From: Octopus sinensis
Taxonomy: Eukaryota
Assembly: GCF_006345805.1 (NCBI RefSeq)
Contig: NC_043001.1
Location: 99,572,001-99,636,000 of the forward strand
DNA: 64,000 nt
Reading direction: 5' to 3'
Positions 17,560-44,023 of this stretch are shown one piece after another. Position 1 is the first letter of the stretch. Every line of letters begins with the position of its first letter. The position numbers and the translations under genes are program-made. The notes below the pieces were generated by a model that made no database searches, was not told where the DNA came from, and saw nothing but the letters and a program-made list of their open reading frames with translations.

Positions 17560-17615
17560 CAGTAAATGGTTTGGGGCTGGTTTGAATTAAAGTGCAGCAA
17601 ATATGAAATTATGAC
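17560..17615 (-). CDS. Open 56-nt exon VIISYLLHFNSNQPQTIY(W)
   Basis: Acceptor ttttcttttgttgtcag, donor CTG|GTGAGA; only phase 0 is open; phase 2 out. Confidence 0.6.
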
Positions 17616-18504: not shown

Positions 18505-18750
18505 GTGGAGGCACATGGTCTAGTGGTTAGGGCATTGGACTTATGATCATAAGAGCGTGGTTTTGATTCTTGGATCAAGTAATGTGTTGTGTTCTTGAGC
18601 AAAACACTTCATTTCACATTGCGCCAATCCACTCAGTCGGCAAAAATGAATAATTCTGTGATGGACCAGGTTGGGAATTTATATGCTATGGAAACCAGAA
18701 AATTGGCCCTTATTAGTTGGCATGACTCGAGAAGGTAACTTTACCTTTTT
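18505..18750 (+). mobile_element. tRNA-derived SINE
   Basis: tggtctagtggttaggg head, tgttcttgagcaaaacact, ccactcagtcggcaaaaatg. Confidence 0.75.
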
Positions 18751-19949
18751 TCTCTCTTTGACTAATTGATTAAAAAGCAAAAAAAAAACAACAAAAGGGC
18801 CATCCTTTTAAGGATAAAAAAAATGGAAAATATATCCTGTCTTAAATTTCCAGAGACAATGCATCTAGAACTACATGATCCAAAGTGTTCATTCTTATTT
18901 ATGGTGGAAGGGTGTCTTTTGAAGGATATTTGGCTGTTATTTCTAACAGATTGAGCAACTATGAGGAGGATCCCTTGTAATTAGAGTAGCAAATTATTTT
19001 TATTGCTTATTCAGAAGGGAAGAGAATGGTCTGAAAAACATGAGGTCAGGAACAACCTTTCTATCCCTAAATAACTGGTAAAAAATACTGAAAAAGAGGA
19101 CCAGATTGAAGCATACAGTCAAGTTCAAATCTCACTAGGTTTGGCTTTGCTTATTATCCCTCTAAGGATGATAAAAAAGAAAAATTTCAAGGATCACACT
19201 AGCCAATGTCTTCTCCACTTTCAAAACAACCAAAATGTGATTTGATAAAGAGTGGTTGCTATTTTTAGCAGTTCAAGGAATCAAATAGAAGCTCTCTTAT
19301 TGGCTTATTCATAAGAGAGTAGAATTCAGATCCACTGACAAGAGTTTAAAATAATTGCTTTAAATGTTCAAGACCAGTAAGTCCCTACCAACATATGTTG
19401 TGACAGAATTAACAACAATATATGGTGCTAAAGTCTATAGTTCAATATACTTACTGACATTGTTGGATTTAAACATAACATAGATAATTGTTTAATGTAG
19501 TAGTGTAGTGTGTCAAATTGTGTGTGTGTGTGTATGATATGTATATGTATATATGTCTATATATATATCATATATATCATTATCTTCATCATCATCATTT
19601 TATGTCTGCTTTCCATGCTGACATGGGTTGAACAGTTTGACTAGAGCAGGCTAGGCAGAAGACTGCACCAGGCTTCAGTGTCTGTTTTGGCATGGTTTTT
19701 GTTTTACAGCTGGATGCCCTTCCTAACACCAACCACTCTGCAGAGTGGACTAATTGCTATTTACATGGCACCAGCCCAGGCGAGGTCAGTTTTGGCATGG
19801 TTTTTACAGATGGATGCCCTTCCAAACACTAGCACTCTGTCAAATATGTACACTTACATTACACAGTCCCTCGTGGTGCTCTGCTCTCTCTCATGTTGCA
19901 GACTCATGGCGCATGACACTCCTGCAGTGCCAAATGAAACCTTCACCAC

Positions 19950-20447
19950 ACTTAGTTGGTCTTCCTCGTCCATCTCAAGGTACAGTGCCAGTGTCCTTCC
20001 CTCCAGGTACAGGGCCATGAGACCCGCTACATCATCAATGCCTTGTAACCTGGCCACTACTTTGATCTTACAGATCCAGGCCACTTCATCTCTGTCACCA
20101 TAGAAAGGTCCAATGGCATCACTACTGATCCTTATGTTCACTGCCATCACGTGGAAGGAGATAACAATGGAGAAATATACTTTTACTCGATTGCCAAAAT
20201 AACATGTTGTGCAAAGGGAAAATAAGAAACAATTCACCTACCATCTCGTTGTTTTGCTGTGCAGCTGCACTCAATCCAAAATTCATGCCTAGCTTGTGCA
20301 CCTAACAATAGCAGCTGCTAGTGCCCGTCCCAATCAGCTTGCTCATCTCACAACTGCTCATTGTGAGAACCCAAAGTGAAACAGGTTGACCACTGGTCTT
20401 CCTTCTCTCACTCTTCCTGTTCCGGTCAAGCTATTTGACCATTGACA
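19950..20447 (-). mobile_element. Gypsy LTR (20205-20447) plus gag N-terminus
   Basis: TG...CA-bounded LTR followed by MAVN..FYGDRDEVAWICKIKVVARLQGIDDVAGLMALYLEGRTLALYLEM. Confidence 0.75.
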
Positions 20448-21170
20448 TCACAGCCATTTCCTTCCGGCTCATCTCATCCCCACACTTTCTCATGTCCTCT
20501 GCATCCAGGGCCCATGTCTCACTATCATGTAGAATTGTTGTCCATATACATGCATCATACAGTCTTCCTTTCACCTGGAGAGAGAAGCCTTTCATGGCCA
20601 ACAGAGGTAACAGTTTTTTTGAATATCCTCCATCCTATTTTTATTCTAGCTATCACACACTCCATGCAGCCTCTCCTACTACTTATTTGGTCCTCTTGGT
20701 AGCAGAAGTTATCTACTACCTCGAGTGAGCCACCAGGGCATTTGAGAGATCAATTTTCTGAGTCGTTAAAATTTTTATGGATCCTATGCATCTTCCATGT
20801 ATGAAAACCATCTTCTCTGATAACCTTCCTACTAATCCACTGCAGTTTTTGTGTGTCCATAGGTACTAGATACACTGTATAGAGTTGCTGCCTACACCTT
20901 TCTTACAAATCAAACAGGGCCACCTACCTGAGTGGGGTAGGGTCCTGTCAGTTTTCTTGCTTACTTGGAGCTTAGTCATTGCTATATTAACCTTAAAGTG
21001 CTTAGATTCTGGGTTTTGATTCCACACCTGGAATTTTTCATCTAGCTCTGATCTGGAATCAGCTATGAGGGCAAAATCGCCAGCATATAGTAGTTGCCAG
21101 GGACTGCCCGTCTTGAATCCCTCTGTTTTGACATGGAGGACAATGATGAAAAGGAGAGGACTGACAGAGT
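20448..21170 (-). mobile_element. Decayed RTE LINE fragment (RT C-terminus, finger)
   Basis: Homologous to 9240-9920. Confidence 0.8.
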
Positions 21171-21211
21171 GTCCAAGTTATTTTTCAAATTTTTCAAACA
21201 TAGTTTATACT

Positions 21212-21536
21212 TAAAGACTCCACCGGTTACAACGACAAGGGTCCCAGCTGATACGATCAACGGAACAGCTTGCTCGTGAAATTAACGTGCAAATGGCTGA
21301 GCATTCCACAGACATGTGTACCTTTAACGTAGTTCTCGGGGATAATCAGCGTGACACAGAGAGTGACAAGGCTGACCCTTTGAAATACAAGTACAACTCA
21401 TTTTTGCCAGCTGAGTGGACTGGAGCAACGTGAAATAAAGTGTCTTGCTCAAGGACACAAGGCGTCGCTGGGAATCGAACTCACAACCTTACGATCATGA
21501 GCCGAATGCCCTAACCACTAAGCCACGCGCCCTCAC
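21212..21536 (-). mobile_element. Full-length young tRNA-derived SINE with 11-bp TSD
   Basis: Intact A/B boxes (tggcttagtggt, gagttcgattcc); TSD tagtttatact at 21201-21211 and 21537-21547. Confidence 0.92.
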
Positions 21537-21645
21537 TAGTTTATACTAGGACTATGTTATCACAAGTGATCTTCACTTTTTTCGTAGATAGTAGAGCATG
21601 ATATTAGCGATATTTAGATTCTATTTTTAACAAATTGAGACTCAC

Positions 21646-21840
21646 CTGCCTAATTTTTTAAGGATCTACTTGTGGCCAGCAAAACTTTTAAAACAAATAG
21701 GTGCAGACAAGCAAGATGGGTTGGGTTAGGGCAATGTACTTCCTCATTTAGAAATGCCAACACCTAATTGATGTAAACACCATTCGTAAATTCAGGTCAT
21801 GTTAAATGGAAATTTGATTATGAACATTTGCATAAATATG
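21646..21840 (-). pseudogene. Exon SIFMQMFIIKFPFNMT*IYEWCLHQ.../VHCPNPTHL with stops and frameshift
   Basis: Acceptor ccttag at 21841-21842, donor CAG|GTGAGT at 21645; phase 2 in matches the previous exon. Confidence 0.5.
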
Positions 21841-22751
21841 CTAAGGCCACACACACAGACACAGTTGCCCTAAATGTAAGATTATATATATATATATATA
21901 GAATTACTTTTTGATAAAAAAAATAATAATAAAATATAACAATATAGCCTTTTCTTGCTTTCATCTATTTTTGTTATTTCATATATTTATTTAAATTTTG
22001 ATTATTGATCAGAAATGCTGTTACTTTTTTGATCAATAGTTTTTTCTTAGCAGCAGTTTCTGGTAAATTTCCATAAATTTTTGATGAATGTCCAACAATA
22101 GTATCAACATTTCAAATCCTAAGGCTTTTTAAATTCAACATATCTGTGCATCTACAGAAAGATTTGAAATCATGGCTCTCAGATTAAAAGTCAGATATTC
22201 TATTGACTACCTTATGTAGGTGGAGACCAAACCATAAATTTCAAGGAATCTGAGGAAACTGGTGAAGGCCTGTGTACACAATAACACTTAATCCAAAAGA
22301 GAGATTATAAACAATAATGGTTTAACTGCACAATTATGATCCCTGATTTTGTTTCCTCATAACTTTCTGAAAATTCTTTATCTTTTCTCTTTTACTATGG
22401 CCAAGTTGGGGCACTGCCTTGAATTTTTTGTGGAATGAATCAACATCAGTACTTTTTTAAAAGTCTGATAATGATTCTATTGGTCTCTTTTGCCAAACCA
22501 CTAAATTACAGGGATGTAAACACATCACCAGTTGTCAAGGGGTGTTGGGGATCAAACAGACCCCCCCCCATATATATATATATGTTGGTAAAAACGGTAA
22601 GATAACAAAAGAAAGAAAGAAACCTCAATATTATGTAAATAGAGGAAATTATATAGATTCATTTGTACACGTGTGTGAATATGTATGAGTGGGCAGTTTT
22701 AGATGTGTGCGTGTGTGCGGGCATAAGAATGCATATATATATATATATATC

Positions 22752-24674
22752 TTTCATCAAACATTCATCAGACATTTTCATCAAACATTTTCATCAAGTA
22801 TTTTCACCAAATATTTTTATCAGACATTTTAATCAAACATCTTCATTAGATATTTTAAACAGACATTTTCATCAAAGAGATTCTGAAAACAGACATTTTC
22901 ATCAAACATGTCCATCAAAAATTTACAGACATTTTCATGAAACATTTCCATCAAACATTTTCATGAGACATTTTCATGAACATTAGATATTTTTATCAAG
23001 AATTTTCATCAAACGTTTTCATCAAATATTTTCATCAAACATTTTCTTCAAACATTTTCAACAGACATTTTCATCAGACATTTTCATCAAACATTTAATC
23101 AGACATTTTCATCAGACATTTTAATCAAACATTTCATTAAACATTTTCATGAAACATTTTCCATCAGACATTTTCATGAAACATTTCAACAAACATTTTC
23201 ATCCGACATTTTCATCAAACATATTCATCAGACATTTTCATCAGACATATTCATCAGACATTTTCTTCAAACATTTTCACCAAACATTTTTATCAGACAC
23301 TTTCATCAAACATATTTCATCAAACATTTTCATCCAACATTTCAATAAAACATTTTCATCAGAACATTTCTCATTAGATATTTTCATCAGACATTTTCAT
23401 GAAACATTTCATCAAACGATTTCTGGAAACATTTTCATCAAACATTTTCATTAGATATTTTCTTCAAACATTTTTATCAAAGATTTTCAAGAAAAATTTT
23501 CATCAGACATTTTTACAAAATATTTTCATCAGACATTTTCATCATATAATTTCATGAAACAATTCATCAAATATTTTCATCAAACATTTTCATCAGAAGT
23601 TTTCTTCAAACATTTTCATCAGACATTTTCATCAAACATGTTCCTCAAACATTTTCATCAGACATTTAAAAAAATTTTTTTCATCAGACAATTTTACAAA
23701 ATATTTTCAGACATTTTCATCATATAATTTCAAACATTTTCATCAAACAATTTCATCAGACATTTTCATGAACATTTCTCAGATATTTTTATCAAGAATT
23801 TCCATCAGACATTTTCATGAAACATTTTCATGAAACATTTCATCAAACGTTTTCATCAAACATCTTCATCAGATATTTTCATCAAACATGTTCATCAGAC
23901 ATTTTAATCAAACATTATAATCAGACATGTTCATAAAACATTTTCATCACAATTTTTCATCAAATATTTTCATCAAACATTTTAATCAAACATTTTCATC
24001 AGACATTTCATCAAACGTTTTCATCAAACATCTTCATCAGATATTTTCATCAAACATGTTCATCAGACATTTTAATCAAACATTATAATCAGACATGTTC
24101 ATAAAACATTTTCATCACAATTTTTCATCAAATATTTTCATCAAACATTTTAATCAAACATTTTCATCAGACATTTTTCAAAACATTTTCATCAGACATG
24201 TTTATAAAATATTTTCATAAGACAGTCATTAAATATTTTCATGAAACATTTCATCAAACGTTTTCATCAAATAATTTCATCACACATTTTCATCCAACGT
24301 TTTCATCAGATAGTTTCAGACAATTTCATGAACATTTCTCATTAGATATTTTTATCAAGAATTTTCATCAGATATTTTCATGAAACATTTTCATGAATAA
24401 TTTAGTCAAACGATTTCATCAAACATTTTCAGGAAACATTTTCATCAGACATTTTCTTCAAATATTTCCATCAAACTTTTTCCTCAGACATTTTCATTAG
24501 ATATTTTCTTCAAACATTTTCATCAGACATTTTAACCAAACATTTTCATCAGACATTTTCATCAAACATTTTAATAAAACATTTTCATCAAACAATTTCA
24601 ACAGACATTTTCATGAACATTTCTCATTAGATATTTTTATCAAGAATTTTAATCAGACATTTTCATGAAACATT
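22752..24674 (+). repeat. 13-bp satellite (ACATTTTCATCAR)n
   Basis: ~1.9 kb tandem array; near-perfect 168-bp higher-order duplication starting at 23835 and 24003. Confidence 0.95.
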
Positions 24675-26703
24675 TAACCCTAACCCTAACCCTTACCGTA
24701 ACCCTAATTTTAACACTAACCCTAACCATAATCCAAACCCTAACCCTAACCACTAACCCTAAACCTAACCCTAACCCGAACCCTAACCCTAATTCTAACC
24801 CTAACCCGAAACCTAACAATAACCCTAACCCTAACCCTAACCGTAACCGAAACCCTAAACCTAACCCAAACCCTAACCGTAACCCTAACCCTAATTGTAA
24901 CCCTAAACCCTAACCCTCACCCTAAACCTAACCCTATACCTAACCCTAAACCAAACCCTAACCCTAACACTCACCTTAACCCTAACCCGAACCCTAACCC
25001 TAAACCTAACCCTAACTCTAACCCAACCCCTAATGCTAACACTAACCCTATCCATAACCCTAAACCTAACCCTAACCCCAACTGTAACCCTAACTCTAAA
25101 CCTAATTGTAACCTTAACCCTAACCTTAAATCTAACCGTAACCCTAAACCAAACCCTAACCCTAACCCTGACCCTAAACCTAACCCTGACCCTAAACCCT
25201 TACCCTAACGCTAACCCTATTCCTAACCCTAACCCTAGCCCTAAACCTACCCCTAACCCTACCCCTAAAGCCAGCCCTAGCCCTAGTTATAGCCGTAGCC
25301 CTAGATCTAGCCCTAACCCTAGTTCTAGCCCTATCCCTAACGCTAACCCTTCACCTAACCCTAACCATAACCCAATCCCAAACCCTAACCCTAACCCTAA
25401 ACCTCACCCTAAGCCTAACACTAACCCTAAACCTAATGCTAACCCTAACTCTAACCCTAGCCCTAAACCTACCCCTAAATCTAGCCCTAGCCCTAGTTCT
25501 AGCCCTATCCCTAACCCCAACCTCAACCCTAACCCTAACCCGAATCTTAACCGTAACCATAACCCTAAACGTAACCGTAACCCTAACCCTGACCCTAACC
25601 CTTACCCTAACCTTAACCCTACACCTAACCCTAACCATAAGCCAAACCCTAACCCTAACCCCAACCTTAACCCTAAACCTAACCGTCACCGGAATCCAAA
25701 CCCTAAACCTAAACCTAACCCTAGCGCTAACCCTAACCCAAGCCCTAAACCTACCCTAACCCTCACCTTAAAGCTAGCCCTAGCCCTAGTTCTAGCCCTA
25801 TCCCTAACCCTAACCATAACCATAATACTAACCCTAACCCAAACCCTAATCCTAACCCTACACCTAACCCAAACCCTAGCCCTAGCCCTAGCTCTAACCC
25901 TAATCCTAACACTAACCCTAACCTTAACCCTAACCCTAACCATAAGCCAAACCCTAACCCTAACCGGAATCCAAATCCTAACCCTAATGCTAACACTAAC
26001 CCTAGCCCTAAACCTACCCCTAAAGCTAGCCCTAGCCCTAGTTCTAGCCCTATCCCTAACCCTACACCTAACCCTAACTGTAACCATAATACTAACCCTA
26101 CACCTAACCCTAACCCAAACCCTAATCCTAACACTAACCCTAATCCTAACCATAACCCTAACCCTACCCCTAAACCTAGCCCTAACCCTAACCCTAACCC
26201 CAACCTTAACCCTAAACCTAATTGTATCCCTAACCCTAACCCTAACTCTAACCCAAACCTTAACCCTAACTGTAGCCATAACCCTAAACCAAACCCTAAC
26301 CCTAACCCTAAATCTAACTCTACCCCAACCCCTAACGCTAACCCTATCCATAACCCTAACCCTAACCTTAACCCTAACCCTAACCGTTACATTAACCCCA
26401 ACCCTAAACCTAACCCTAACCCAAAACCTAACCCTAACCTAAACCCTAACCCAATCCCTAATCCTAGCCCTAAACCTAACCCTAACCTATCCTGAAACCT
26501 AACCCTAACCCTATCCCTAAACCAAACCGTAGCCCTAAACCTAACCCTAAACCTAATCTAACCCTAACCTTAACACTAACCCTAGCCCTAACGCTAACAT
26601 TTAACCTAACCCCAACCCTAACCCTAAACCCAACCCAACCCTAACCCTTAACCCCAACCATAACCCCTAACCCCACCCTAACCCCTAACTCTAACTCTAG
26701 CCC
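24675..26703 (+). repeat. Degenerate telomeric array (CCCTAA)n, interstitial
   Basis: ~2 kb of CCCTAA with CCCTAG, CCTAAA, CCGTAA and CCATAA variants. Confidence 0.95.
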
Positions 26704-27928
26704 AAAGATATCAAAGAGTGTGCCGAAAGAGATCAAAGAGTGTGCCGAAAGAGATAAAAGAGGGTGCCGAAAGAGATCAAAGAGGGTGCCAAAAGAGATC
26801 AAAGAGGGTGCCGAAAGAGATCAAAGAAGGTGCCGAAAGACATCAAAGAGAAGTCCCGAAAGAGATAAAAAAAGGTGCCGCAAGAGAGGAAAGAGATCAA
26901 TATGGGTGCCGAAAGAGATCAAAGACGGTGCCGAAAAAGATAAAACAGGGTGCCGAAAGAGATAAAACAGGGTACCAAAAGAGATAAAAGAGGGTGCCGA
27001 AAGAGATCAAAGAGGAGTCCCGAAAGTGATAAAAGAGGGTGCCGAAAGAGATAAAAGAGGGTACCAAAAGAGATAAAAGAGGGTGCCGAAAGAGATCAAA
27101 GAGGAGTCCCGAAAGTGATAAAAGAGGGTGCCGAAAGAGATCAAAGCGGGTGCCGAAAGAGATCAAAGCGGGTGCCGAAAGACATCAAAGCGGGTGACGA
27201 AAGTCATCAAAGAAGGTACCGAAAGGGATCAAAGAAGGTGCCGTAAGACATCAAAGAGGGTGCCGAAAGAGATAAAAGAGGAGTCCCGAAAGAGGCCGAA
27301 GAGTGTGCCGAAAGAGATCAAAGAGGGTGCCGAAAGAGATCAAAGAGGAGTCCCTAAAGAGATCAAATAGGGTGCCGAATAAGATCAAAGAGGGTGCCGA
27401 AAGAGATCAAAGAGGAATCCCGTAAGAGAGCAAAGGGGGTCCTGAAAGAGATCAAAGAGGGTGCCGAAAAAGATCAGAGAGGGTGCCGAAAGAGATCAAA
27501 GACGGTGCCGAAAGAGATCAAAGCGTGTCCCGAAAGAGATCAAACAGGAGTCCCGAAAGAGATCAAATTGGGTACCGAAAGAGATCGAAGAGTGTGCCGA
27601 AAGATATCGATGAGAGTGCCGAAAGAGATCAAAGAGGAGTCCCCAAAGAGATCAAATAGGGTGCCGAATAAGATCAAAGAGGGTGCCGAAAGAGATCAAA
27701 GAGGAATCCCGTAAGAGAACAAAGGGGGTCCTGAAAGAGATCAAAGAGGGTGCCGAAAGAGATCAGAGAGGGTGCCGAAAGAGATCAAAGAGGAGTCCCG
27801 AAAGAGATCAAAGAGGGTGCCGAAAGAGATCAAAGAGGGTGCCAAAAGAGATCAAAGCGGGTGCCGAAAGAAATCAAAGAGTGTGCCGAAAGTGATCACA
27901 GAGGGTGCCGAAGGAGATCAAAGAGGGT
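26704..27928 (+). repeat. 22-bp satellite (GGGTGCCGAAAGAGATCAAAGA)n with 23-bp GGAGTCCC variant
   Basis: ~55 copies; higher-order duplication with period 289 (27361 vs 27650). Confidence 0.95.
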
Positions 27929-28559
27929 CCGTCCCTAAACCTAACCCTAACTACATACTAAAGGGAGATAACTACAAAATATCTTTTAGAGTTGCATATT
28001 ACAATTTAATAATGTAACTCTAAAAAGGAAGACGCGACACATAACTACAAAATCCTCTAGAGTTACTTCACATCCATATAATTATTTTATCACTATTATT
28101 AAATTATGACGATGGAAGTAAGTTTAGAAAGGCAAGGGAAGTAACCTTAGGAAGGGAGATAACTACAAAATCTTCCAGAGTTACTTCCCTTACATAAAAT
28201 TACGATACGACTGTTATTAAATTGTAATAGAGAAAGGAAGTAACTCTATAATATAATACTCATGACACATACACTGTTACTCTTTTCCTTGTTTAGTCAT
28301 TTCACTGTGCCCATGCTGGAGCACAGCCTTTTCTAGAGCAAATAAACACCAGGACTTAATCTACGTCAATCTAGTATTTATTCTGTTGGTCTTCTTTTCC
28401 CGAAAGGCTAAGTTAATGGAGTGTAAAAAACACCAGCATCGTTTGTCAAGCGGTTTTGGGGACACAGAAACATACATATAAATATCTATATGTATATACA
28501 TATATGTCTCACTCTATACATATATTTATATCTCTCTCTCTCTATATATCTATATCTAT

Positions 28560-28568
28560 CTATTTCTA

Positions 28569-28650
<82 letters not shown>
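28560..28650 (+). repeat. (TCTA)n microsatellite
   Basis: Direct observation. Confidence 0.95.
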
Positions 28651-28651
<1 letters not shown>

Positions 28652-29833
28652 ATATATATACCAATCTATATACGACGGGCTACTTTCTGTTTCCGTGTAC
28701 CAAATCTACTCAGAAACTTTGGTCCGTCCGAGGCTATATTGGAAGACACTTGGCCATGGGGCCACGTAGTTGGACTGAACCAGAAACCCCGTGATTGGAA
28801 AGCAAGCTACAGATGCAACCACCTTGGGTATGGGTGCACTGTGCTCACACACGTACAAACAGCCACACGTCCGCACTCACGCATATAGATACATGCAAAG
28901 ACGCAAACTCGTAGCTATTTATGTTTTAAATATGTTGACCTTAAAAATGCGACATTCTGAAAACATAGTATGAGTTTGTAGGTCAGCCGAAGAGTGTGTG
29001 AGCTTGTGCTTTCATTTCTGTCTGTGTGCGCGTGCGCATGTGTAATAGAGTGTTTCCAGTTCATACCTTTAAATGTGTGCTCGTGTAAAACTGTTTTAAT
29101 TTCTGAGTGTATTTATGTGTGTGTGTGTGTATGTGTGTTTATTTCTGTGTGTGTTGTACATATATGTATATATAAATATATAAGTACAAACACCCACACA
29201 GATTTTAAGACACTCACATACAGAACTATATATATATATACGTTAATACGCCTCTTTATCCATCGAACATAACGTGAAATCCGATGTTTGTGAGTTCACG
29301 TCCCCGTAACTTAGCGTTTCTGCAAAAGAGACCTATACATTAAGTACTACGCATACAAAGAATAAGTCCTGGGGTCGATTTCCTCCACTAATACACCACA
29401 ATTTAATAACAATAATATAATAATATACAAGGTAAGTATATCTATATAATATTTTGTAGTTATCTCACACAAATATGTGGTTAACGAGAGATAGGGTAAG
29501 GGTTACTTGCATATTATATTTATTAAGATTAAATTATCATAGGTAAGGGAATTAACTCTTGAAGATATTTGGTATCATAATAAAGACGTGACACATACAC
29601 TTTTTCGCTTTTCCGTGTTTTAGTCATTTGACTGTCACCATGCTGCAGCACCGCCTTTTCTAGAGCAAATCGACACCAGGACTTATTCTTTGTAATTCTT
29701 TGTAAGCCCACTATTTATTCTATCGGTCTTCTTTTGCCGAACCGCTAACTTACGGTGATGTAAACACACCAGAATCGGTTGTCAAGCGATTTTGAGGACA
29801 CAAACGCAGACAGAAACATAGACACACACATAC

Positions 29834-29926
<93 letters not shown>

Positions 29927-30070
29927 TACGAAGGGCTTCTTTCTGTTTTTTTCCCCACTGCCTGACATCTTGTGCAATTGTCTTCTACTATAGATCCGGA
30001 CCGAATAAAGCCTTGTGATTGGATTTGGTGGAAGGAAACTAAAATAATCCAGTCGTATACATGTATATAT

Positions 30071-30138
<68 letters not shown>

Positions 30139-32354
30139 TGTGTGTGTGTGTGTGTATGTGTGTTTGTTCCCAAACATCGCTTCACAACTAATGCTAGTCT
30201 GTTTACGTCCCCGTAACTTAGAGGTTCACAGAAAGAGACTGATAGAATAAGTACTAGGCCTACTAAGAATAAGTTCTGGGGTCGATATGCTCGGCTGAAG
30301 GTGGTGCTCAAACATGGCCACAGTCAAATGACTGAAACAAGTAAAGGAGAGTAAAAGAGTAAATAGCGACAAAAGTCTATGACCTGTTCACTAGGGAGAT
30401 AGCTGAAAATATCTCCTAGAGTTACTTCCCTAACATCATATAATACGTTTTATGTAATTTCTGTAATAGGTGTGTTCGCTTTACGCCTGCGAAAGGAGAC
30501 ACGACCATGCGCACACCAACAGACACACATACACATGCAAGTAATCTGCTGGAACCTTTAACAAATAAGCATTGACTACCTAATCATTTACATTTCATTA
30601 CACCCCACAAGTATATAAAGTAATAATATTATCTAGTACTACCATTCGGATATAATTAAGTTTCTTTTTTTGTTTTAGATAGTACATATACGTGTAGGTA
30701 TATCTGTATGTGTATGTGTGTGTGTGTATATATATATATAAAATTGTATATATACTGCTGGAGCACCGCCATTATTCGAGCACATTGTCCGCAGAACTTA
30801 TTCTTTGTAAGCCTAGTATTTATTCTAACTTATTCTTTTTTGCTGAACCGTTAAAACACAGGGAGGAAAACACACCAGCATCGGTTGAAAAATCTACAAT
30901 AGCCCAGGGCCGACCAAAGCCTTGTGATTGGATTTGGTAGATGGAAACTAAAAGAAGACTGTCATATATATATGTAACAGTAAGAGTGGCTGTGGTATGT
31001 GTGTTCCTTTTACGCCTGCGAAAGGGGACAAGAGCATGCTGATCATTTACATTTCATTACACCCTATAAATATATAAAGTAATAATGTTTGTTGTAGCTG
31101 TAATTGTCGCACACACACAAACGAATAAAAACACACAGACGCTCACACAGAAATAAAAACATTCACGCAAACACAAACACTGAAATGAAAATACCAACAC
31201 ACACACAAATAAAAACAGTCCCACGCACACAAACACTTAGAAAAAATACTCACACACAGAAATGAAAATACACAGCTACATACTACACTCAAACACGCGG
31301 ACAAACACAGAAATGAAAACAGTTACACGCACACACTCGAACACACAGAAAATAAAACACTCACACACACACATATAGAAATGAAAAATACAGTTACACA
31401 TCCAAACACTCACACACTCACAAACACACACACACACAGAAATGAAAATAGTCACACACAAACATACGCACCCACACACAGAAATGAAACCACAGTTACT
31501 CACTCACACATAAAACCCTAACCCTAACTAGCACACACATACAATTTATTCAGAATAGAACAGGGCATTGGGTGCTTTGCACTCGCAGTTAGAATATCAG
31601 CCCCCTCCACGCCAGTATGAGAATTTCTTTTATCCACTTATGAAATTAATACATTGTCGCCATATGAGAAAAATATGAGCAATATCTGAAGTCACTAAAG
31701 GTGTAATAAATTGAACTTATTTTGATTTAGTAGTTAGTGATCTCAAATGTGGGTATCTTAGAAATGGTCAAAGTGTTTGTTGTAGTAGTAATTGTCGCAC
31801 GCACACAAACAATTAAAAACACTCAGTCGAGCAAACACGCGCGCACACACAAATAAAAACACTCTCACACACACAAACACTGAAATGAAAATACCCACAC
31901 ATACATTCACACACACTCATAAATAAAAATAGTCCCACACACACACAAGGAGACCCCATAGGTATATCAAAAAAGTTTCTAGTATCTTTCCTAGCCCATA
32001 CTTTATTATGATAATTGAAGTTCTTATAATAAATAAGTACCTACTAAATCAGTACAACCAACATTACGTCCCCGTAACTTATCGGTTCTGCAAAAGAGAT
32101 CTATACATTAAGTAATATGCATACAAAGAATAATTCATGGGGTTGATTTGCTTGATTAGAAGCGGTGCTCCACCATGGCCACAGTGAAACAACTGAAAGA
32201 GTGTAACATCGAAAAAGTGTAAATTACGATAACTACATACTTAAGGGAGATAACTACGGAAACTAAAAGAAGACTGTAGTATATATATGTAACAGTAAGA
32301 GTGGCTGTGGTATGTAGCTTGCTTTCCAACACACCAGCATCGGTTGAAAAATCT

Positions 32355-32612
32355 AACCCTAACAACTACAGTCAATCGAAGATAATGACCAAACTGTCTA
32401 CTCTTATCCACCACTTCCAACAAGATTTGACAAAAAATGAGACAAATTACTCGACTAGATTTGACTGCAAAGCCAATAACGTCTGTGGACTTCCCAAAAT
32501 CTACAAAAGTGAGGCCAGAAACGTAGCCTTATAAACAAGTTAACTTCTATAGTCATAAATATTCCACACCCGAGAGATTTACGAATGAGACCAATCATGG
32601 CCGATCCAGGAA
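32355..32612 (+). mobile_element. Penelope-like RT N-terminal fragment (partial second copy at 36433-36512)
   Basis: DLTKNETNYSTRFDCKANNVCGLPKIYKS...PRDLRMRPIMADP resembles the PLE motif FYGLPKIHK...RPIVAGP. Confidence 0.8.
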
Positions 32613-34867
32613 TGTAGATACGGGGGACATTGGGTGCTTAACACTCGCAAATAGAATATCAGCCCTCTCCACGCCAGTATGAGAATTTCTTTTATCCACT
32701 TGTGAAATTAATACATTGTCGCCATATGATAAAAATATTAGCAATATCTGACGTCGCTAAAGGTGCAATAAATTGAACTTCTTTTCATTTAGTAGTTAGT
32801 GATCTGCAAATGTGGGTATATTAGATATGCTTAAAGTGTTTGTTGTAGCTGTAATTGTCGCACACACACAAACGAAAAAAAACACGCAGTCGCTCAAACA
32901 CACGACAGACACAGAAATAAAAACACTCACACACAAACACTGAAATGAAAATACCCACACACACTCATATAGAAATGAAAATACACAGCTACACATTCAC
33001 ACACACACACATGCAGACAAACACAGAAAGGAAAACAGTTACACACCTACACACGCACACACAAACGTACGCGCCCACACACAGAAATGAAAACAGTTAC
33101 ACACTCACACATAAAACCCTAACCCTAACTTGCACACACATACAATTTCTTCAGAATCTAACGGTTTTAGGGTCAACATATATAAAGCATAAATAACTAC
33201 AAATGTTCATCTTTGTATGTAACAGAGCGACAAAGTGTATAGTACAACTACGTTTTCAAAGGAGATAACTACAAAATATCTCTAGAGTTACTTCCCTTGC
33301 ATATTACAATTTAACAATAACTATAAAGCAAAGTAACTCTAGAAGATATTTTGAAATTATATCCCTTATAAATGTAGTTAGCGGGACATAACTACAACAT
33401 ATCTTCTACAGTTACTTTCCTTACATTTAAAGTATATTATTACTATTATTAAATTCAGACGTGATACACTTTTACTCCTTTGACTGTGCCTATGCTGGAG
33501 CACAGCCTTTTCTAGAGCATATCGACACCAGGACTTATTCTTCGTAAGCCCACTATTTATTCTATTGGTCTCCTTTTGCCAAATCGCAAACTTACGGTGA
33601 CGTAAACACACCAGAATCGGTTGTCAAGCGATTTGGGGGACACAAAAGCAGACAGATTAATACACACACACACATATATATGTGTGTGTGTATATATATA
33701 TATTTTTTTTCATATATACGACAAGCTTCTTTCTGTTTCCATGTATGGGTGAAACAGACTTTCGCGGTCGGTCACATTAGCCGATGAGACCACCTTGAGT
33801 ATGTGTGGACTGTGCTCACACACGCACAAATACCCACACTTCCGCACTCATGCACATAGATACATGCAAAGACGCAAACTCGTAGCTATTTATGTTTCAA
33901 ATATATTCATCTTAAAACCGTGACATTCTGAAGAAATGATATGAGTCTGTGGGTCAGCCAATATGTGTGTGTGTGTGTGCTTTCACTTCTATGTCTGTTT
34001 GCGCGCGCGTATGTCTGTGGATTTTTGCTCACCAACAACAATGTACTGGGTTCAATCCAACAGCGTGGCACCTTCGGCAAGTGTATTCAACTATACCCCC
34101 GGGCCAACCAAAGTATTCTCAGTGGAGTTGGCAGAGGGAAACTGAAAGAAGCTCGTCGTATATATGAATATCGACACAGGAATGGATATGTGGTAAGTAG
34201 TTTGCTTACGAACCACATGGTTTCAGTTTCATTCCCACTGCCTCGCATCTTGTCCAACTGTCTTCTACTGTAGCTCCGGGCCGAAAAAATCCTTGTGATT
34301 GGATTTGGTGGAAGGAAACTAAAAGAATCCCGTCGTATATATGTTTAAATATATGTGTATGTGTGTGTGTTCGCACTCGAAGGGGACATGAGCATACACG
34401 CACGAACCATCATACATAAAAATGCAAGTTCTCTTACTAGGGAAAGAACTCCCATTCTATCCCTTAAATTTTCCGAGATATATGAGTAAAATCCTTTCCT
34501 TTAACTAATTTTAGTATTATATATTTGTAAGGGAGCCAACTCTCCATACATCCCATAGAACCTATTATTATTGAAACACTAATTACGTTTCCTAATATTA
34601 AATTGTATTACCATCAATAAAAGGACGTAACTCTTGTTATAGGTGTAATTGTCGCACACACACAAACGAATAAAAATACAGTCGCTCACACACACGTACA
34701 CACAAATAAGAACATTCACACAAACACAAATTTAATAATAAACTAATATGGATGGGAAGTAACTCTAGAAGATATTTTGAAATTATATCCCTTAAATATG
34801 TAGTCAGCGGGATATAACTACAACCTATCTTATACAGTTACTTTCCTTACATACAATTATATTATTA

Positions 34868-35509
34868 ACGTAAGGGGTATTAGCCATCTGAATGTGGTTA
34901 GCCACTGGGGGTGGGGTGGGGTGGGGGTGTTACTGATGCTTTTAGCCCCAGGCGATCAACGTCGCCAGAAGGACTTTAGACACTATCTCAGTGCCCTTGT
35001 GTTATTTTCAAAGGGAGATCATCCTCCCTCGAAGACCCGAGTACTATATACGGACTATAGTTTCAAGGTAATTGCCTCTCGTCAACGCATTGCAAGCACC
35101 GGTCTTCGATGAAGGAGTCCCCTTGCAAATAATATATAACGTTTTTCATTGTTTTCAGACAGTTTTTCTACATCAGTGACAGTGGTTACTGTGAAAAACG
35201 TTATATATTATTTGCAAGGGGACTCCTTCATCGAAGACCGGTGCTTACCATGCGTTGACGAGAGGCAATTACCTTGAAACTATAGTCCGTATGTAGTACT
35301 CGGGTCTTCGAGGGAGGATGACCTCCCTTTGCAAATAACACAAGGGCACTGAGATAGTGTCTAAAGTCCTTCTGGTGACGTTGATCGCCTGGGGCTAAAA
35401 GCATCAGTAACACCCCCCCCCAGTGGCTAGCCACATTCAGATGGCTAATACCCCTTACGTTGTCGAGCGGTTACTGTTTATATCTCGTTCAGAGATTTAT
35501 TATTGTTTT
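34868..35509. mobile_element. Fold-back insertion with ~280-bp inverted arms and 13-bp TSD
   Basis: Arms 34867-35148 and 35192-35461, 43-bp spacer, TSD aattatattatta at 34855-34867 and 35510-35522. Confidence 0.9.
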
Positions 35510-38500
35510 AATTATATTATTACTATTATTAAATTTAGACGTGACACACTTTTACTCGTTTTATTTATTTGACTGTGCCCATGCTGGAGCACAGCCTTTT
35601 CTAGAGCATATCGACACCAGGACTTATTCTTTATAAGCCCACTACTTATTCTATCGGTCTTCTTTTGCCGAACCGCTAATTACGGTGACGTAAACGCACC
35701 AGAATCGGTTGTGAAGCGAATAATGGGACACAGAAACGTACACACATATATATTTAAATTTCTATATGTATATACATATATCTATCTATCTATATGTATA
35801 TATATATATATATCTTTATCTATAAATATACCTGTATATACATCTACCTATATATATCTATATCTCTCTCTATATATATATCTATATATCTCTACCAATC
35901 TATATACGACGGGCTACTTTCTGTTTCCGTGTACCAAATCTACTCAGTAACTTCGGTCTACCCGAGGCTATGTTAGAAGACACTTGCCCAAGGGGCCACG
36001 CAGTTGGACTGGAGCATAAACCCCGTGGTTGGAAAGCAAGCTAAATACCACGGCCACTCTTAATGCTATATATATACCAGGACTTATTCTTTGTAAGCCC
36101 ACTATTTATTCTATCGGTCTTCTTTTGCCGAATCGCCAACGTACGGTGACGTAAACACACCAGCATCGGTTGTCAAGCGATTTTGGGGACACAAAAGCAG
36201 ACAGATAAATACACAAACACATACATGTGTGTATATATATATATATATATTCATATATACGACAAGCTTCTTTACTGTTTCCGCGTACCAAATCCACTCA
36301 CAAAGCTTTGGTCTGTCCGAGGCTATAGTAGAACACTTGACATTAGTGCCACGTAGTGGGACTGAACCAGAAACCATGTCTTTGGTAAGCAATATACTTA
36401 CCGCAAAGCACTCATACGGGTATATATTTACACAAACAAGTTAATTTCTATAGTCATAAATATTGCACATCCGAGAGATCTCCGAATGAGACCAATCATG
36501 GCCGATCCAGTTATGTAGATACGGGGGGCATTGGGTGCTTAACACTCGCAAATAGACTATCAGCCCCCTCCACGCCAGTATGAGAATTTCTTTTATCCAC
36601 TTGTGAAATTAATACATTGTCGCCATATGATAAAAATATTAGCAACATCTGAAGTCACTAAAGGTGCAATAAATTGAACTTCTTTTCATTTAGTAGCTAG
36701 TGATCTGCAAATGTGGGTATCTTGGAGTTGGTTAAAATGTTTGTTGTAGCTGTAATTGTCGCACCCACACAAACAAATAAAAACACTCAGTCGCTCACAC
36801 ACACGTACACACAGAAATAAAAACTCTCTCACATACACACTGAAATGAAAATACCCACACACACTTTCACACACACATAAATAAAATCAGTCCCACACAC
36901 AAACACTGAAAAAAATACACACTCACATACGCCCAAACACACACACACATAGAAATGAAAATACACAGCTACACATACAAACACTCACACACACGGACAA
37001 ACACAGAAATGAAAACACAGTTACACACCTACACACTCAAACACACAGAAATGAAAACACACTCACACACACACACATAGAAATGAAAACTTAGCAACCA
37101 CATGGCTTTGGTTATGTCCCACTACGTGGCACTTTGGGCAAGTGACTTCTAATATAGCCCTCGGACAGACAAAAGTTTCTGAGTGGGTTTGGTACATGGA
37201 AATAGAAAGAAGCCCGTAGAATATATGAATATATATATATGTATTTATGTTTCTGTGTCCCCAAAACCGCTTCACAACTGATGCTGGTGTTTACGCTCCC
37301 GAAAATTGCGGTTCGGCAAAGAGGACAAATGTCTTGCAAACAACTTGCACATGCAAGTGCTACCAGTTAAAAGCTCCGTATATCGGAAGCTAGCAAGTGT
37401 ATGGGGTCATCAGGAGAGAATGCGCGCCGTTTCGGGGCCTACCTCTCGACGGCATCAATGCGCACCGAACCACCTCACTGATATGAGGCTCCGCTTGCTA
37501 GATCAGCTGGTTATGAAGAACTCAATATACTTCTAGCCATCGCTCGTCGTCTCTTTTTAACCTATAGAATAAGTCCTGGTGTCGATTAGCTCGACAAAAG
37601 GCGGTGCTCCAGCATGGGCACAGTCAACTGACACAAACAAGGAAAAGAGTAATTGTGAACGTGTCACCTCTTAAATATACAAAATACCTTGTAGAGTTAC
37701 ATCTCTTGCAAATTATACTTGAATGATATTACTAATATATTACTAATGATATTATTAATGATATTACTAATATGCAAGGGAAATAACTCTAGAGTGCATA
37801 CTGCACTTATCTCCCGTTAACTACATATTTCAGAGATATAACTACAAATTATATTCTTGAGTTAGTTCCCTTGCATATTCATTATTTAAATTATTATTTG
37901 TAATGGAATTAACTCTAGAATATATTTCATATTTATCTCCCCTAAATATGTAGTTATCGTAATATATACTTTGTCGCTTTGTTACACTCTTTCAGTTATT
38001 TCACTGCGGCCATGCTGGAGCACCGCCTTTAGTCGAGTAAATCAACCCCAGGACTTATTCTATAGGTCTCTTTTGCAGAACCGCTAAGGTAAGGTGACGT
38101 TATGTTCGATGGATAAACAGACATGTTAACGTGTATATGTATATACGTAGAAACACGATACACACAGATTTTAAAACTCACATACGCATACATACACACA
38201 GTTACACAGTCACGCACCGCAATGAAAACACACATCAAGTATTCATGTATATAAATATATATATGCATCTTGTATATATACATATAGATATATTTGTAAT
38301 TATATATAAAACTTAGATATGTTTGTGTGTGTGCTCCCATTTCTGTGTCTGTGCGCGCGCACCTGTGTGACAGAGTGTTTCCAGTTCACTGTTGGTGTCT
38401 GAGCGTTTGTGTTTGTGTGTGTGAGTGAGTGAGTGTGTGCATGTGTGTTTTCATTTCTAGGTGTGTGAGTTTGTAAATGTGTGTTTTCACTTCTGTGTGT

Positions 38501-39289
38501 GCGCGCATCCGTTTGTTTGTGAGTGTGTTGACTAATAAAAATAAGAAATAAGTGTAAATGTTTACCGGTGAGTGTGTTAAATAATAAGGCACTAAAAGAG
38601 AATGACCCTTCCCAGACACAACAGAATATGCTTCAACACACGAACTCATATAAAGAATCTTGCAAACTAAATCCAAAAACGAAATATAGTGTTTATTCCG
38701 TTGACAAATTTAAGGGAGATAACTGGAAAACCTCTTCTACAGTTACTTTCCTTGAATATTATAATAAAGACTTGTTTCATTCTTTTGACTGTGCCCATGC
38801 TTGAGCACCACCTTTTATCGAGCAAATCGACCCCAGGACATATTCTTTGTAAGCTTAATATTTATTTTATCGGTCTTCTTTGCCGAACCGCTAAGTTATG
38901 GTGACGTAAACACACCAGCATCGGTTGTCAAGATGTACTGTGAATGATGGTTAACAATAGAAGAACGAATTATATGATGCTTTCCGTGGTTATATTTTTC
39001 CTATTGTAGTAGATGAGGCATGATCGCACAAGGCATTAACCTTAGCCCTCATCCCTGCTTTTCAATGCTAAACCCGATATAAAACAGTGATCAACACTCG
39101 AAATAAACCTGTTCAATCTCTACCCTCCTCATCACCCAAAATCCTAACCCCTAGTTCAAACTTTGATCTCTTACCTGACTATTCTCTCTAAAAACCCTTC
39201 ACAAACCCCCAAGCTAACCCTAATATAGACTAAACTCTGAAAACCAATCCTAACAGCAAACCCACACCAAAATAAGAAAAACCACTTAC

Positions 39290-39357
39290 CTTTGGCCATT
39301 TGGGATCTATAATACAAGGCATGATATGCAAACAACAAGCAAAATATCAACCAACAT
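39290..39357 (-). pseudogene. First coding exon, signal-peptide-like MLVDILLVVCISCLVL*IPNGQ
   Basis: ATG at 39357, hydrophobic stretch, in-frame TAG, strong donor AAG|GTAAGT at 39289, phase 2 out. Confidence 0.55.
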
Positions 39358-40269
39358 TTGAAAGTCAAGTTTTCTCTATGTGTCGAATCATGAAATACAC
39401 TTGTTTAATAAATACGGTTGTCCTTACATTTACACAGTACATTGCTTCCACAAGTCATCAAACTAATCATTCTCATGCGAAATGAAATTGATGTTTTTAT
39501 TTATAATATAAACAAATTAATTATTGAAATTAATATAAGACATACAATTAACGTGTATGTATGTCATCATCATTTAACATTCGATTTTCATGTTGTCATG
39601 GGTTGGATTATTTCACACTATCTGAGATGAATTACAACACGTACCTCTAATGTCTGTTTTCACATGGTTTCTATGTCTGAGAAATGTTTTGGTAACACTG
39701 ACACAAGTAAAATTAAAAAGTAAATTTCAAGGATGAGTGAATTGCTAGTAGTGAGGGCGGTGGCTTCATCCTAAGCTGTAGTATGATAGAGAGACAGGCA
39801 GAGGTGTGTTGCTGTAGAGAAAGTACATGGTTACCCTGCATATATGTATGTATATAGGTAGACATCGATTAGAGCGCTTTCTCATTGCTAATATGTTAAC
39901 ATATGCTTGATGTGTGCTTTAAAAATAAAGTGCTTGCACTGGCACTAATTTCTTCAGATGATGAAAATCACGGAAAAGACTTAATCTAGATGAGATGCAA
40001 TTTGGTTTTGTATCAGGAAGAAACACCAGTCATGATATATTTCTGGTAAGAAACCCCCAAGTATAAACCACTGTACTTGACTTTTGTTGGTATCATGATT
40101 CCACTTTCTACAGTAAATAGAGTAATTTTTCAATTCACTAAACAGGAAAGTAGTCCATATAACCTTACCCAGGTAGACTAAGGCCCTCTGACAGAACACT
40201 TTGCTTTCTTAAGAGAAGTGTGTAAGATACTCCTCATTGCAAGGCCTCCAATATAGCAGAATAAGTTGA

Positions 40270-41076
40270 TGTCAGTCCCAGAATAGCTGTCAGTTATCTC
40301 TGCAAAATTGGCTATTATGGCAGAGCAGCAAGAAAGAAGACACTGCTTTGACCAGCCAATATCAAATGGAGAAAAGATTAGACAAGTGAGATGGTAGGGA
40401 GGTCACTAGCACTTTGGGACACTGTCAAATTCTCTGATGAATCCAGATTTGCTGTATTTTCTGACACTGGTCGAGTGTGGGTCTGGAGAATCAGTCACCA
40501 ATATTTTCACGTGAATATATTGCAGCCAACATTGAAACATGTGATGGTCTGGAGAGCAATTTGGAGCAATGGTCAATCAGAAATGGTGGAGTGTGAGGGA
40601 TACATAAACTCAGATAAATATGTGTCCATATTATAGAAAAATCTTCTTCCTATATCCTCCAGTGGTAAAATAATTAAAGAACACTATTTATGGAAGATAG
40701 GGCTTTCTTGCACAACTAAAAGACCCAGGATTGGTTGGAAGAGAATGGCATTAAAAAGCTTCCATAGCTAAGCCAATCACCAGATATGAACCCTACTGAA
40801 CACCTCTGAGGCATGATGGATGGGACATTTCCTAAAAAGAAAAAGAAAGCATCCTTACAGCCAGATCTTTTGATATTACTGCAAGAAACTTGGCAAGAAA
40901 ATCATGAAGAGAATATTCATCAGATCAGTAGCATGCCTGATAGGGTCATTGCATTCAAAAATGCAAAGGAGCCTGTCTACTAAATATTAGATATTCACAT
41001 TATAATAATTAATAAATAACTTAGATAAATTTTAACAATTATAAGGATGTCTATTTAATTCTGTCATGTCCATGTA
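40270..41076 (+). mobile_element. Tc1-type transposase pseudogene with 3' end
   Basis: WDTVKFSDESRF, VMVWRAI, SQSPDMNPTEHL motifs. Confidence 0.9.
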
Positions 41077-41199
41077 GTTTTTGAAGCAAAACACAATGGA
41101 AACATTCACAGGAAAATTAGTATTAAGACCTTTTCAAAAATCTCTCTCAAGCTTTTCATGCACACTAAGATTTTATTGACATTCATTCAAATTCACTCA

Positions 41200-41940
41200 T
41201 TCCAACATGAACCAATTTTTTCCATCAAAAACTTTGTGATGTTTTCACTTTCTCTAATTTGATCTAGATCCTCTAAGTGTCTCTAATGCATTCATGCCTT
41301 AATTTCAATTTGTTGCCTAGAATTTTCCTCAGGGCCAACTCACCAAACAGAAATTAATTAGAGACCTAATTGCCTTTCATCTTGACCACATAAATACTCC
41401 CACATATTTGGTGCTCAAATACAGCATGCTCCCCACTAGGAGATTGACAGTTACCCAGTATATGCAAAAATCAAACATCATACATTTGCAGTACTAACAA
41501 GCCATTACTATTGCATTTTCTAGCTTCATGTTTCCCAATCATATCCCAAAATTTTTTATCTCTGCAAATGCTTTCATTGAAATCACCAAGTATGAAGATT
41601 TTATAAGCAGAAAGAACACTGCACAGAAGCTTTTTTTCATGAAAGATAGAATATTAGTCTTTTTTTTCTCTTCAGAGGAACACATGGTTGGAGGGTAGAC
41701 ACTTACTAAGGTAACAAATCTCTTGTTTGACAATGGCATTCTCACTGACATCAAGGTAATCAGTAAATCCAAAGAGAAATCTCTCACAGTGTAGAAACTA
41801 TGAAATTTTTGAACTTCTTTTTTCAAACATTGCACTGTCTACTATCCTCACCACCCAATGAAACATATAGCCACCACAATGTATGGTGAAGTGACCCTCA
41901 TTTTAGACAATAACATTATGTCTATGTTATATCACTGCAG
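41200..41940 (-). mobile_element. RTE/BovB-like endonuclease fragment
   Basis: LMSVRMPLSNKRFVTLVSVYPPTM. Confidence 0.65.
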
Positions 41941-42226
41941 CTCCTATGATTCAAAAACTGATCCTCTTTCAGGGAAAGTTGAAGAGGATTCATAATGTGA
42001 GATGCATTTGTTGGTCCCTACCTATAGTCGAAGACTCTTGCCCAAACTGCCACACAATAGAACTAGACCCCAAACCATGGCATTGGGAAACAAACATATT
42101 TTACATTTGCAAACATATATGTCTTATAGAAATTGTTCAATATACACAGAGAAACAGGTGTTCAATTTACAAACAGCTATGGTTAACTAACAGAAAACTT
42201 AATAAATTAACAAAAACATTATGTAC

Positions 42227-42596
42227 TCGCGTGTGAAGCTTCGCATGGGGCTACTTTTTTGGTAAATTCCACATGTATAAACTGTTGTGATGAGAGTCAT
42301 TTACACCCCTACGGGATTGAAAGAATGGACTAGCAAAACTCTTATAAAAAAGTATTGTATTGGTTGAGATAAAGAGAGTCATAAGAGTCACTGGGAGTTC
42401 ATGGAAGTTGTTGACGTTGTTCAGAGTTTGTATTTATTGGAGTATTGTGTTTAGTGGAGTAATCTGAAGTAGGTTGTGTGAAGACAGTTGTGTCTATCCC
42501 TGCTTCGTGAAATTTGCATATCCAACATATAGAAGGATATAAAATAAACAAAAGTTTGCATGTAAACCAATAAGTGTAATCATTCATTTTTTAACC
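42227..42596 (-). other. Candidate upstream (5'UTR or decayed) exon
   Basis: Strong acceptor ttttcatttttactttcag, AAAATG context opening a 62-aa ORF, weak donor GTACAT. Confidence 0.3.
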
Positions 42597-43772
42597 CTGA
42601 AAGTAAAAATGAAAAACATCCTAATAGTAGCGAAAGGAAAATTTTGGCTTTAATATCAGTTCACTACTCTTTACTTGAAGTGACAAGCAGCCAAGTATTA
42701 TACAAATGGAAACTTTTACATGTCTCAAGAAAGATATAAATGCAAGCAATGTGAGACCAACTTTCATTAAAACTACACAAGAAATTCATCAAAATTCATT
42801 CACAGATTTTATTCTATTAAATTTAAGATGGTGGAGAGGCACAATTGTTAGAGTGTTGGCAAAATACCTTCCAATATTTCTACCAGCTCTTTATATTCTA
42901 GTTTCAAATCCTGTTAAGGCTAACTTTGTTTCTCCTCCTTTCATGGTTGATAAAAAAAGTGCAAGTCAAGTAATAAAATCAATTTAATCAATTAACCACT
43001 TCCTCTAAAATTTGAGGCATTCCACTGTTTTACAAACAAACATAACCAATTAATCAAATGTCTTTGGAAAAATAAATCTGCTTGTTAGGAAACAGGATAG
43101 CTTTCCTGTCATTCAAATATTCGTGAAATTTACAATATATCATAATTTCAGCAATTAACATAGTCATATTGTAGGAGATTTCATCACCATTTCACTAAAG
43201 AAGCATGCAGTAATATAGAAAAAGATATTGCCAAATCAGCTTTCCATATGAAAACTTTCATTAATTAAGAAATCTTAACCATAACCAATATTTTTTATGC
43301 TATTTCATCAATGAGCAACTAATAAGGCAGAGTTTAAATCCATGCTTCCTTCTCCAGTTTATCATATGCCTCTCAATCCATTCAACCATTTATTGAAAGG
43401 TCAATAATCACCAGTTTATGTTCAATGATTCCAAACAGAAATTATCTGTGTGCTTGTATGTGAGTGCCTGAGCAAGTGCATGTATATCTCTCTTGAGAAC
43501 AATAGATTTCGTTGGTGGTACCTGTTATCTCAATTCTAACTTTTGGTGGCTGAGAAGAGGTCAGGAGGGTCAAGTGACAAAGATATTATTCTGCTTAGAT
43601 AAGGACTCTGGTAAATTTAACTGCTGTCACTCACAGAAAAACTATTGTTTTAGCGTGAGAAAAGTGCTGTTGAACTGTTAAGTGAAATTTGGCGATCAAC
43701 AATCAAATCCACGCCATGCCTGCATGAAACCACTTAATCACCTATGTCTATCCCTCTATTCATAATCTAACC

Positions 43773-44023
43773 CAGTGCTACTCAACCATTTCTCACCTAT
43801 GAACCTTAATCTCTGTTTTGCTCAGGAGGGCTCTCATAGCCAATCAGTGTTTTAAAAATTCATTATTATATTTTTATAATTGCATTTATTAGTAATTTTA
43901 AAAAGAGCTACTGAAATATTTTGTATGACACAGAAGTATAAAAAATTTTATCAACATAATTTTTCACAACAACCCATTTTATAGACCCCCAAAGGTCAAA
44001 TGGACCTCATTTGAAAAGAACTG
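43773..44023. mobile_element. hAT-Charlie-like MITE
   Basis: Degenerate TIRs cagtgctactcaa / ttgaaaagaactg. Confidence 0.55.

Follow-up and report, generated by a model that had tools for sequence, protein, structure and literature searches.

In a 64,000-nt window of the Octopus sinensis genome (assembly GCF_006345805.1, contig NC_043001.1, positions 99,572,001 to 99,636,000; the window is the whole stretch of DNA analyzed, and positions below are counted from its first letter), a block of about 16 kb carries two satellites, a telomere-type tract and a patchwork of duplicated modules. By analogy with described cases, the block is likely an interstitial, subtelomere-type telomeric sequence, a known kind of feature. 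Its CpG content supports a distinct history, in which the block would have aged in a chromatin compartment other than that of its flanks. Our preferred explanation, which we hold tentatively and would stop short of calling probable, is that the block is the relic of a former chromosome end, and that one junction, formed by repair of a break, joins its left edge to internal DNA. Meanwhile, the story of a gene interrupted by the block, proposed by an earlier model reading of the letters (the sequence-only reading), is unsupported.

The order and coordinates of the arrays given in that reading were reproduced by Tandem Repeats Finder. On the plus strand, a 13-bp satellite (22752-24675; 149 copies, 73% matches) is followed by a decayed (CCCTAA)n tract (24675-26703) of 338 TAACCC units in a single orientation, and then by a 22-bp satellite (26700-27928; feature span to 27931) that sits between two CCCTAA stretches. 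Three more telomere-type units (27932-27951, plus strand) meet a palindromic module via a common TAAC, a join that may reflect a telomerase seed, and the patchwork occupies the remaining 27952-38935. The patchwork is composed of short interspersed nuclear element (SINE)-like modules, the palindromic module, CA-rich modules and microsatellites. The modules lie in both orientations, most duplicate pairs are 70-90% alike, and 80% of the mosaic (27930-38935) has another copy inside the block while 32% has a copy in the flanks, which bears out the description of this part as a shuffled mosaic. Four motifs of the palindromic module are confined to the block within the window. The patchwork also contains a young, CpG-rich fold-back element (34867-35461), whose core arms of 230 nt are 97% complementary around a 43-nt spacer and whose arms reach further out, to ~275 nt. 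Recent local duplication is seen in the 13-bp satellite (a 168-bp tandem duplication, 23798-24008 versus 23966-24176, at 97% identity), and similar duplications of 289 and 89 bp are present in the 22-bp array. The 22-bp satellite had no further copies in the window at up to 2 mismatches and 0 matches in the metagenome and viral contigs searched. The long stop-free frames within the arrays were rejected as genes, being by-products of the repeats. The window as a whole is N-free and AT-rich.

Near-matches to CCCTAA occur at 27-35 per 250 bp in the tract, whereas the flanks average 0.9 and never exceed 5. Provided that the assembly is correct, the tract is interstitial in the broad sense, as 24 kb of other DNA lies on one side of it and 37 kb on the other. 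Its units are degenerate: 36-37% are perfect, the per-base match is 85%, and the longest perfect run has 3 units. Independent changes at a per-base match of 85% would leave 38% of the units perfect, near the ~37% observed, and purity by sixths of the tract (0.29-0.46) is without trend or gradient. The TAACCC tract is a decayed relic with random-like changes. Since human proximal telomere variant repeats mostly retain GGG (bioRxiv 10.1101/2022.05.09.491186), whereas CCC is kept here in 187 of the 326 full units (TAA in 219), the tract does not have the look of a working telomere. We rejected a functional proximal telomere on this count and on the missing trend in purity. PMC13218726 names TTAGGG, in one octopod, as the sole telomere motif determined for a cephalopod. 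No G-strand array, and hence no head-to-head arrangement, was found in any 250-bp bin; the claim of a single orientation holds, and the block is not a head-to-head telomere fusion.

Block and flanks differ in CpG retention. The observed/expected CpG ratio (o/e) reaches 0.82 for the mosaic and 0.94 across the 22-bp array, versus 0.21 at 12000-22690 and 0.22 at 38933-45000. Repeats with copies on both sides of the boundary behave in the same way. For module A, which we take to be SINE-like, the 13 block copies show 57 CpGs kept, 14 changed to TG/CA and 11 changed otherwise, while the 2 flank copies show 4, 10 and 1 (block versus flank, Fisher p 3e-4); for module B, the corresponding counts are 22, 0 and 4 in 8 block copies versus 0, 3 and 0 in 1 flank copy. 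Youth does not account for the retention, because non-CpG divergence is higher inside the block than in the flanks (10.9% versus 7.3% for module A, 15.9% versus 9.3% for module B). In Octopus bimaculoides, CpG methylation is over-represented in introns and exons and under-represented in intergenic DNA, and the first third of 6545 genes is unmethylated (PMC9476566). Taken with this methylation pattern, the CpG retention indicates that the block likely aged outside a methylated gene body, and the composition of both CpG-poor flanks suggests gene-body DNA. Of the interpretation in the sequence-only reading, a history of the block separate from that of its flanks is supported, by o/e and paired repeat copies alike. 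Matches to two long interspersed nuclear element (LINE) references are also partitioned, with 0 bp in the block versus 12.8 kb in 11 flank pieces; the chance of 0 pieces is 0.02 for the block and 0.08 for the mosaic alone.

At the left edge, the switch in CpG state is sharp. The left flank at 21540-22320 is single-copy and CpG-poor, with one contig per run (depth 60.5 in run X1, 42.4 in X2 and 7.2 in X7), and 21540-22450 holds 3 CG and 26 GC dinucleotides. Next comes a plus-strand flank copy of module A (22453-22569), ~200 bp from the satellite, with 0 CpGs kept, 6 changed to TG/CA and 1 changed otherwise. It is followed at 22570-22751 by fragments of high-copy dispersed repeats with a (TA)n run on either side (4 CG, 5 GC), which we regard as the likely left junction zone. 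The fully decayed copy adjoins CpG-keeping DNA, within ~200 bp. A left change-point fit (best 19780) was discarded, as it was pulled by a CpG-rich element at 21200-21535. This element, likely a young repeat in the CpG-poor flank, has a tRNA-like head at 21460-21531 (Rfam, 33 bits), suggesting a SINE; Rfam returned nothing besides this head. Contigs of X1 show 0 differences in 896 flank bases (depth 60.5) and over the satellite start at 22776-22870 (depth 51.3), which is not independent support because X1 may be the source sample. A contig of X2 is exact over 22495-22569 and extends 30 letters past 22539, one below our bridging rule.

Summed contig depth, which is no copy number, was 12,000-32,000 times single copy in bin 22575-22619, and for the 13-bp unit in bin 22755-22799 it was ~1,490 (X1), 350 (X2) and 11,700 (X7) times single copy. 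The X1 and X7 values far exceed what the 149 diverged local units could give, so the 13-bp family exists elsewhere in the genome. As a separate observation, the relative depth of this satellite differs ~30-fold among runs of differently labelled organisms, which may reflect fast satellite turnover, within the same limit on summed depth. The low depth of X2 at 22845-22870 (4.8 versus 42.4) was considered as a sign of polymorphism and rejected, since the analysis covered only ~76% of that run and a gap in coverage is no proof.

On the right, the transition is gradual. The mosaic stops at ~38932-38936, and the unique DNA beyond it (38936-39640) retains CpG as the block does and includes both a CCCTAA-like remnant and the proposed right exon (39290-39357). 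At 38933-39640 there are 10 CG and 15 GC, indistinguishable from the mosaic (p 0.55) and distinct from 39901-44300 (p 0.0007), and the CpG change point falls at 39640-39900. The remnant (39030-39285) is faint, with 8 near-matches (shuffle p 0.04). Because this unique DNA keeps its CpGs like the block, one new junction on the left fits better than two. No word of at least 10 nt is common to 22300-22800 and 38700-39350, where a target-site duplication was sought, and a transposon-type insertion with such a duplication was rejected. Two 9-mers common to the edge zones lie in paralogous repeat copies, and an inverted-repeat scan of each edge zone separately gave, among the pairs shown, only (TA)n and pairs of 70-81%. 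The missing edge duplication and the CpG-keeping right DNA give no support to the view that both edges are insertion junctions. As for the limits of the block, placed by the sequence-only reading at 22690 and 38935, the second stands as the end of the mosaic, whereas the CpG-keeping DNA begins near 22570 and ends only at 39640-39900.

The combination of an abrupt left edge with a gradual right one is in keeping with a chromosome-end relic that acquired one new junction. In such a history, telomerase would have used a TAAC near 27948 as a seed to heal a break in the palindromic module; the 22-bp satellite would have grown within the proximal tract, and the 13-bp satellite would have been added distally, burying the tract, which would then have decayed. 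The block would have aged in chromatin that was likely unmethylated, until the end suffered a break near 22570-22750 and became attached, by inversion or end capture, to internal DNA of the methylated gene-body type. The DNA to the right of 38935 would be the original neighbor of the relic, requiring no second junction, and the block would now be without telomere function. Related octopus genomes reportedly differ by inversions while keeping a stable set of 30 chromosomes (PMC10700109), and an inversion would supply such a junction. The healing step draws on the three units to the right of the 22-bp array, which meet the palindromic module at the common TAAC, where other copies of the module have non-telomeric DNA. 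This join resembles telomere healing at a short seed: in the blast fungus, healing of this kind is described for 19 of 24 events, along with seeds of 1-4 nt and internal relics that arose from end joining (PMC7367193). Furthermore, of the 8 small telomere-like remnants that 22570-39290 holds beyond the main tract, 7 are co-oriented, versus 7 of 14 in the flanks.

Several points weigh against this explanation. The TAAC join is a single case chosen after the fact, and the shared orientation of the remnants carries little statistical weight (binomial p 0.07, Fisher p 0.17), two of them being duplicates. The paired-copy CpG test involves 3 flank copies, and its CpG columns are set mostly by the block copies. 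The CpG-rich zone at 39300-39700 could instead be a weak promoter. The tract alone is no proof of a chromosome end, since a slug has interstitial TTAGGG arrays on all chromosomes (PMC12506671); the satellites are candidate markers of chromosome ends. No contig among those listed bridges 22570-22776 (3 DNA or unlabelled runs, with 468 further loose ends beyond those listed). Lastly, the module A copies at the two edges (22453-22569 and 38770-38932), which share an orientation, favor a different history, in which a subtelomere-like segment, perhaps a circle, was inserted through two junctions into once contiguous methylated DNA, possibly via recombination of SINE-like copies.

We regard such an insertion as possible but doubtful. 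It would explain why the block lacks the low CpG content and the abundant LINEs of the DNA on either side, and an identical 9-mer in the two edge copies (22531-22539 and 38924-38932), located where the right copy stops, could mark the crossover point. Module A has only 2 copies in the 47.6 kb of flank, so that one at ~200 bp from the satellite is unexpected. However, the two sequences that an empty site would bring together are unlike in CpG state (10 CG/15 GC versus 3/27, p 0.012), a common 9-mer is no rarity between members of one repeat family, there is no true target-site duplication, and the host gene that the segment would have entered is unsupported. The empty-site join itself was sought among the listed loose ends (468 lie beyond these) and did not appear. 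The block might otherwise be an unmethylated repeat island that grew in place, between genes or in the unmethylated 5' part of a first intron, its TAACCC tract being an ordinary satellite that was never terminal. We consider this rather unlikely. In its favor, intergenic DNA is unmethylated in the octopus, as is the first third of many genes (the 6545 of PMC9476566), the transition on the right is gradual, repeats also found in the flanks make up a third of the mosaic, and the tract is decayed and locally duplicated, with neither gradient nor kept GGG. Short satellite arrays of oyster are dispersed by mobile elements (PMC7492417), and the slug arrays (PMC12506671) provide a precedent for interstitial TTAGGG on all chromosomes. 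Growth in place leaves the left switch within ~200 bp, with a fully decayed copy next to CpG-keeping DNA, as a difficulty, as well as the confinement of the palindromic module to the block; the 2-kb telomere-type tract and its mostly co-oriented remnants would need a separate explanation.

Long reads resolve repeats of ~180 bp and duplicates that are 70-90% alike. This bears on a third possibility, that two loci were wrongly joined in the assembly at the repeat pieces and (TA)n near 22570-22751. The edge is sharp exactly on high-copy repeats and microsatellites, and the listed contigs of the 3 DNA or unlabelled runs leave it unbridged. Against a misassembly, there is no N gap, the joining repeats span just ~180 bp, the internal duplicates are mostly 70-90% alike, and the X1 contigs match flank and satellite start without difference at depths of 60.5 and 51.3, with the reservation on the origin of X1 given above. 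We judge a misassembly improbable, the least likely of the rivals, and less likely than the sequence-only reading had feared. Highly improbable in our estimate is that the block is a mobile subtelomere cassette, that is, a circle of telomere, satellites and patchwork integrating via SINE-like copies, which would leave same-orientation copies at the edges and an unmethylated island in a methylated gene body.

The sequence-only reading had placed the block in an intron between phase-compatible exons at 39290-39357 and 21646-21840 (minus strand) and had tied it to inactivation of the gene. Neither the exons nor the gene found support. The left segment has 4 stops in each of its 3 frames, versus 4.4 expected for local non-coding DNA, and in the right segment the frame that opens at its ATG is closed at codon 17. 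Counted over both strands, AGGTRAGT, the donor motif, is present 6 times versus 4.8 expected, a count reached by 38 of 100 shuffles. Pfam gave no match for the three frames of the left exon; two of these frames also had no candidate homologue among proteins of 115-2000 residues, which is weak evidence, and the homology of the third was checked by Pfam alone. Two full-scan HMMER matches of one frame, both tandem-repeat proteins (~23 bits each; tblastn E 2.4-6 at that place), were rejected because weak per-repeat scores add up. Over 21540-21874, the X1 and X2 contigs show no difference and X7 differs at 3 places, of which the one at 21781 adds a stop in the frame required by the claimed phase (by hand; one contig, depth 7). 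A contig of run X12, which we guess to be RNA, continues unspliced through the left donor, extending 106 letters to one side and 31 to the other, and may be DNA or pre-mRNA. The same run lacked coverage of most of the left segment, which we did not count as evidence, and no RNA source was on record, which says nothing about expression. A non-coding exon is possible, as is a real gene elsewhere in the flanks; if the exon is non-coding, phase compatibility is meaningless.

Elsewhere in the window, gene-like signals lie to the right of the block. CpG-rich, promoter-like zones at 45000-46300 (CpG o/e 1.37) and 53200-55600 (0.89 for 53200-54600) are possible transcription starts, with donor-like sites near 45415 (minus strand) and at 55117 (plus strand). 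At 52811-53242 (minus strand), an exon-like segment follows a good acceptor and has overlapping frames of 96 and 101 codons; its Pfam match to AOX (E 0.07) is below the cut-off. Long broken LINE copies, which we presume to be of the RTE family, are found at 2225-4583, 8890-11600, 48563-49861, 56796-58847 and 59950-62445, and related ones are 66-80% alike. A reverse-transcriptase frame at 10216-10875 has 96 homologues, four of them with a named organism: two are Octopus proteins, at 60% identity for one and 72% for the other, and two are bacterial records, presumably contamination. An element with ~85-nt terminal inverted repeats (50470-50950) overlaps a 205-codon stop-free frame without a Pfam match.

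Interstitial telomere-type blocks are common and well described, and a feature of this kind is not surprising. The block nevertheless yields two candidate subtelomeric satellites and one palindromic module as chromosome-end probes in a group whose telomeres have barely been studied; no paper on octopus subtelomeric satellites was found in the literature searched, which lay outside subscription journals and supplements. It also illustrates that, where gene bodies are methylated, the setting in which a block aged can be read from the CpG decay of paired repeat copies. If the block is truly a relic, it would mark a rearrangement breakpoint datable against related genomes. If it were a mobile cassette, recurrent and polymorphic, it would represent a way, not described so far, of spreading chromosome-end DNA among the genes of cephalopods.

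Among known systems, interstitial telomeric sequences left by fusion, such as that at human 2q13-14 (PMC6410037), are alike in placing degenerate telomere repeats at an internal site, and this class was set aside for the octopus block, which has no head-to-head second array. Short interstitial telomeric sequences from telomerase insertion at breaks, as described in the same source, resemble the 2-3-unit remnants at 27932, 31513 and 33114; the main tract, at 2 kb and 338 units, decayed and packaged with satellites, is not of this class. Proximal telomere variant repeats (bioRxiv 10.1101/2022.05.09.491186) likewise mix variant and canonical units in locally duplicated clusters, but the human ones mostly keep GGG, in contrast to the 187 of 326 units here, which moreover lack a pure distal part. 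The HINE/Helentron elements of oyster (PMC7492417) offer a molluscan parallel, having tandem arrays next to microsatellites and hairpin modules and no target-site duplication, whereas the octopus block has three unrelated arrays and an 11 kb patchwork, with no paired terminal modules found at its edges, each of which was scanned separately. In the MoTeR relics of Magnaporthe (PMC7367193), once-terminal telomere-repeat DNA became internal by end joining, with seeds of 1-4 nt; here, no telomere-specific retrotransposon was found, and the 16 kb consist of satellites and non-coding modules. Subtelomeric interstitial telomeric sequences (PMC6410037) differ from the present case on the distal side, which runs here into single-copy, CpG-poor, LINE-rich DNA. 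The block has in common with them a kb-long, degenerate tract in one orientation lying among satellites and duplicated patchwork, and its degenerate C-strand units, set between two satellites and next to a duplicated patchwork, correspond to what is expected of a subtelomeric relic.

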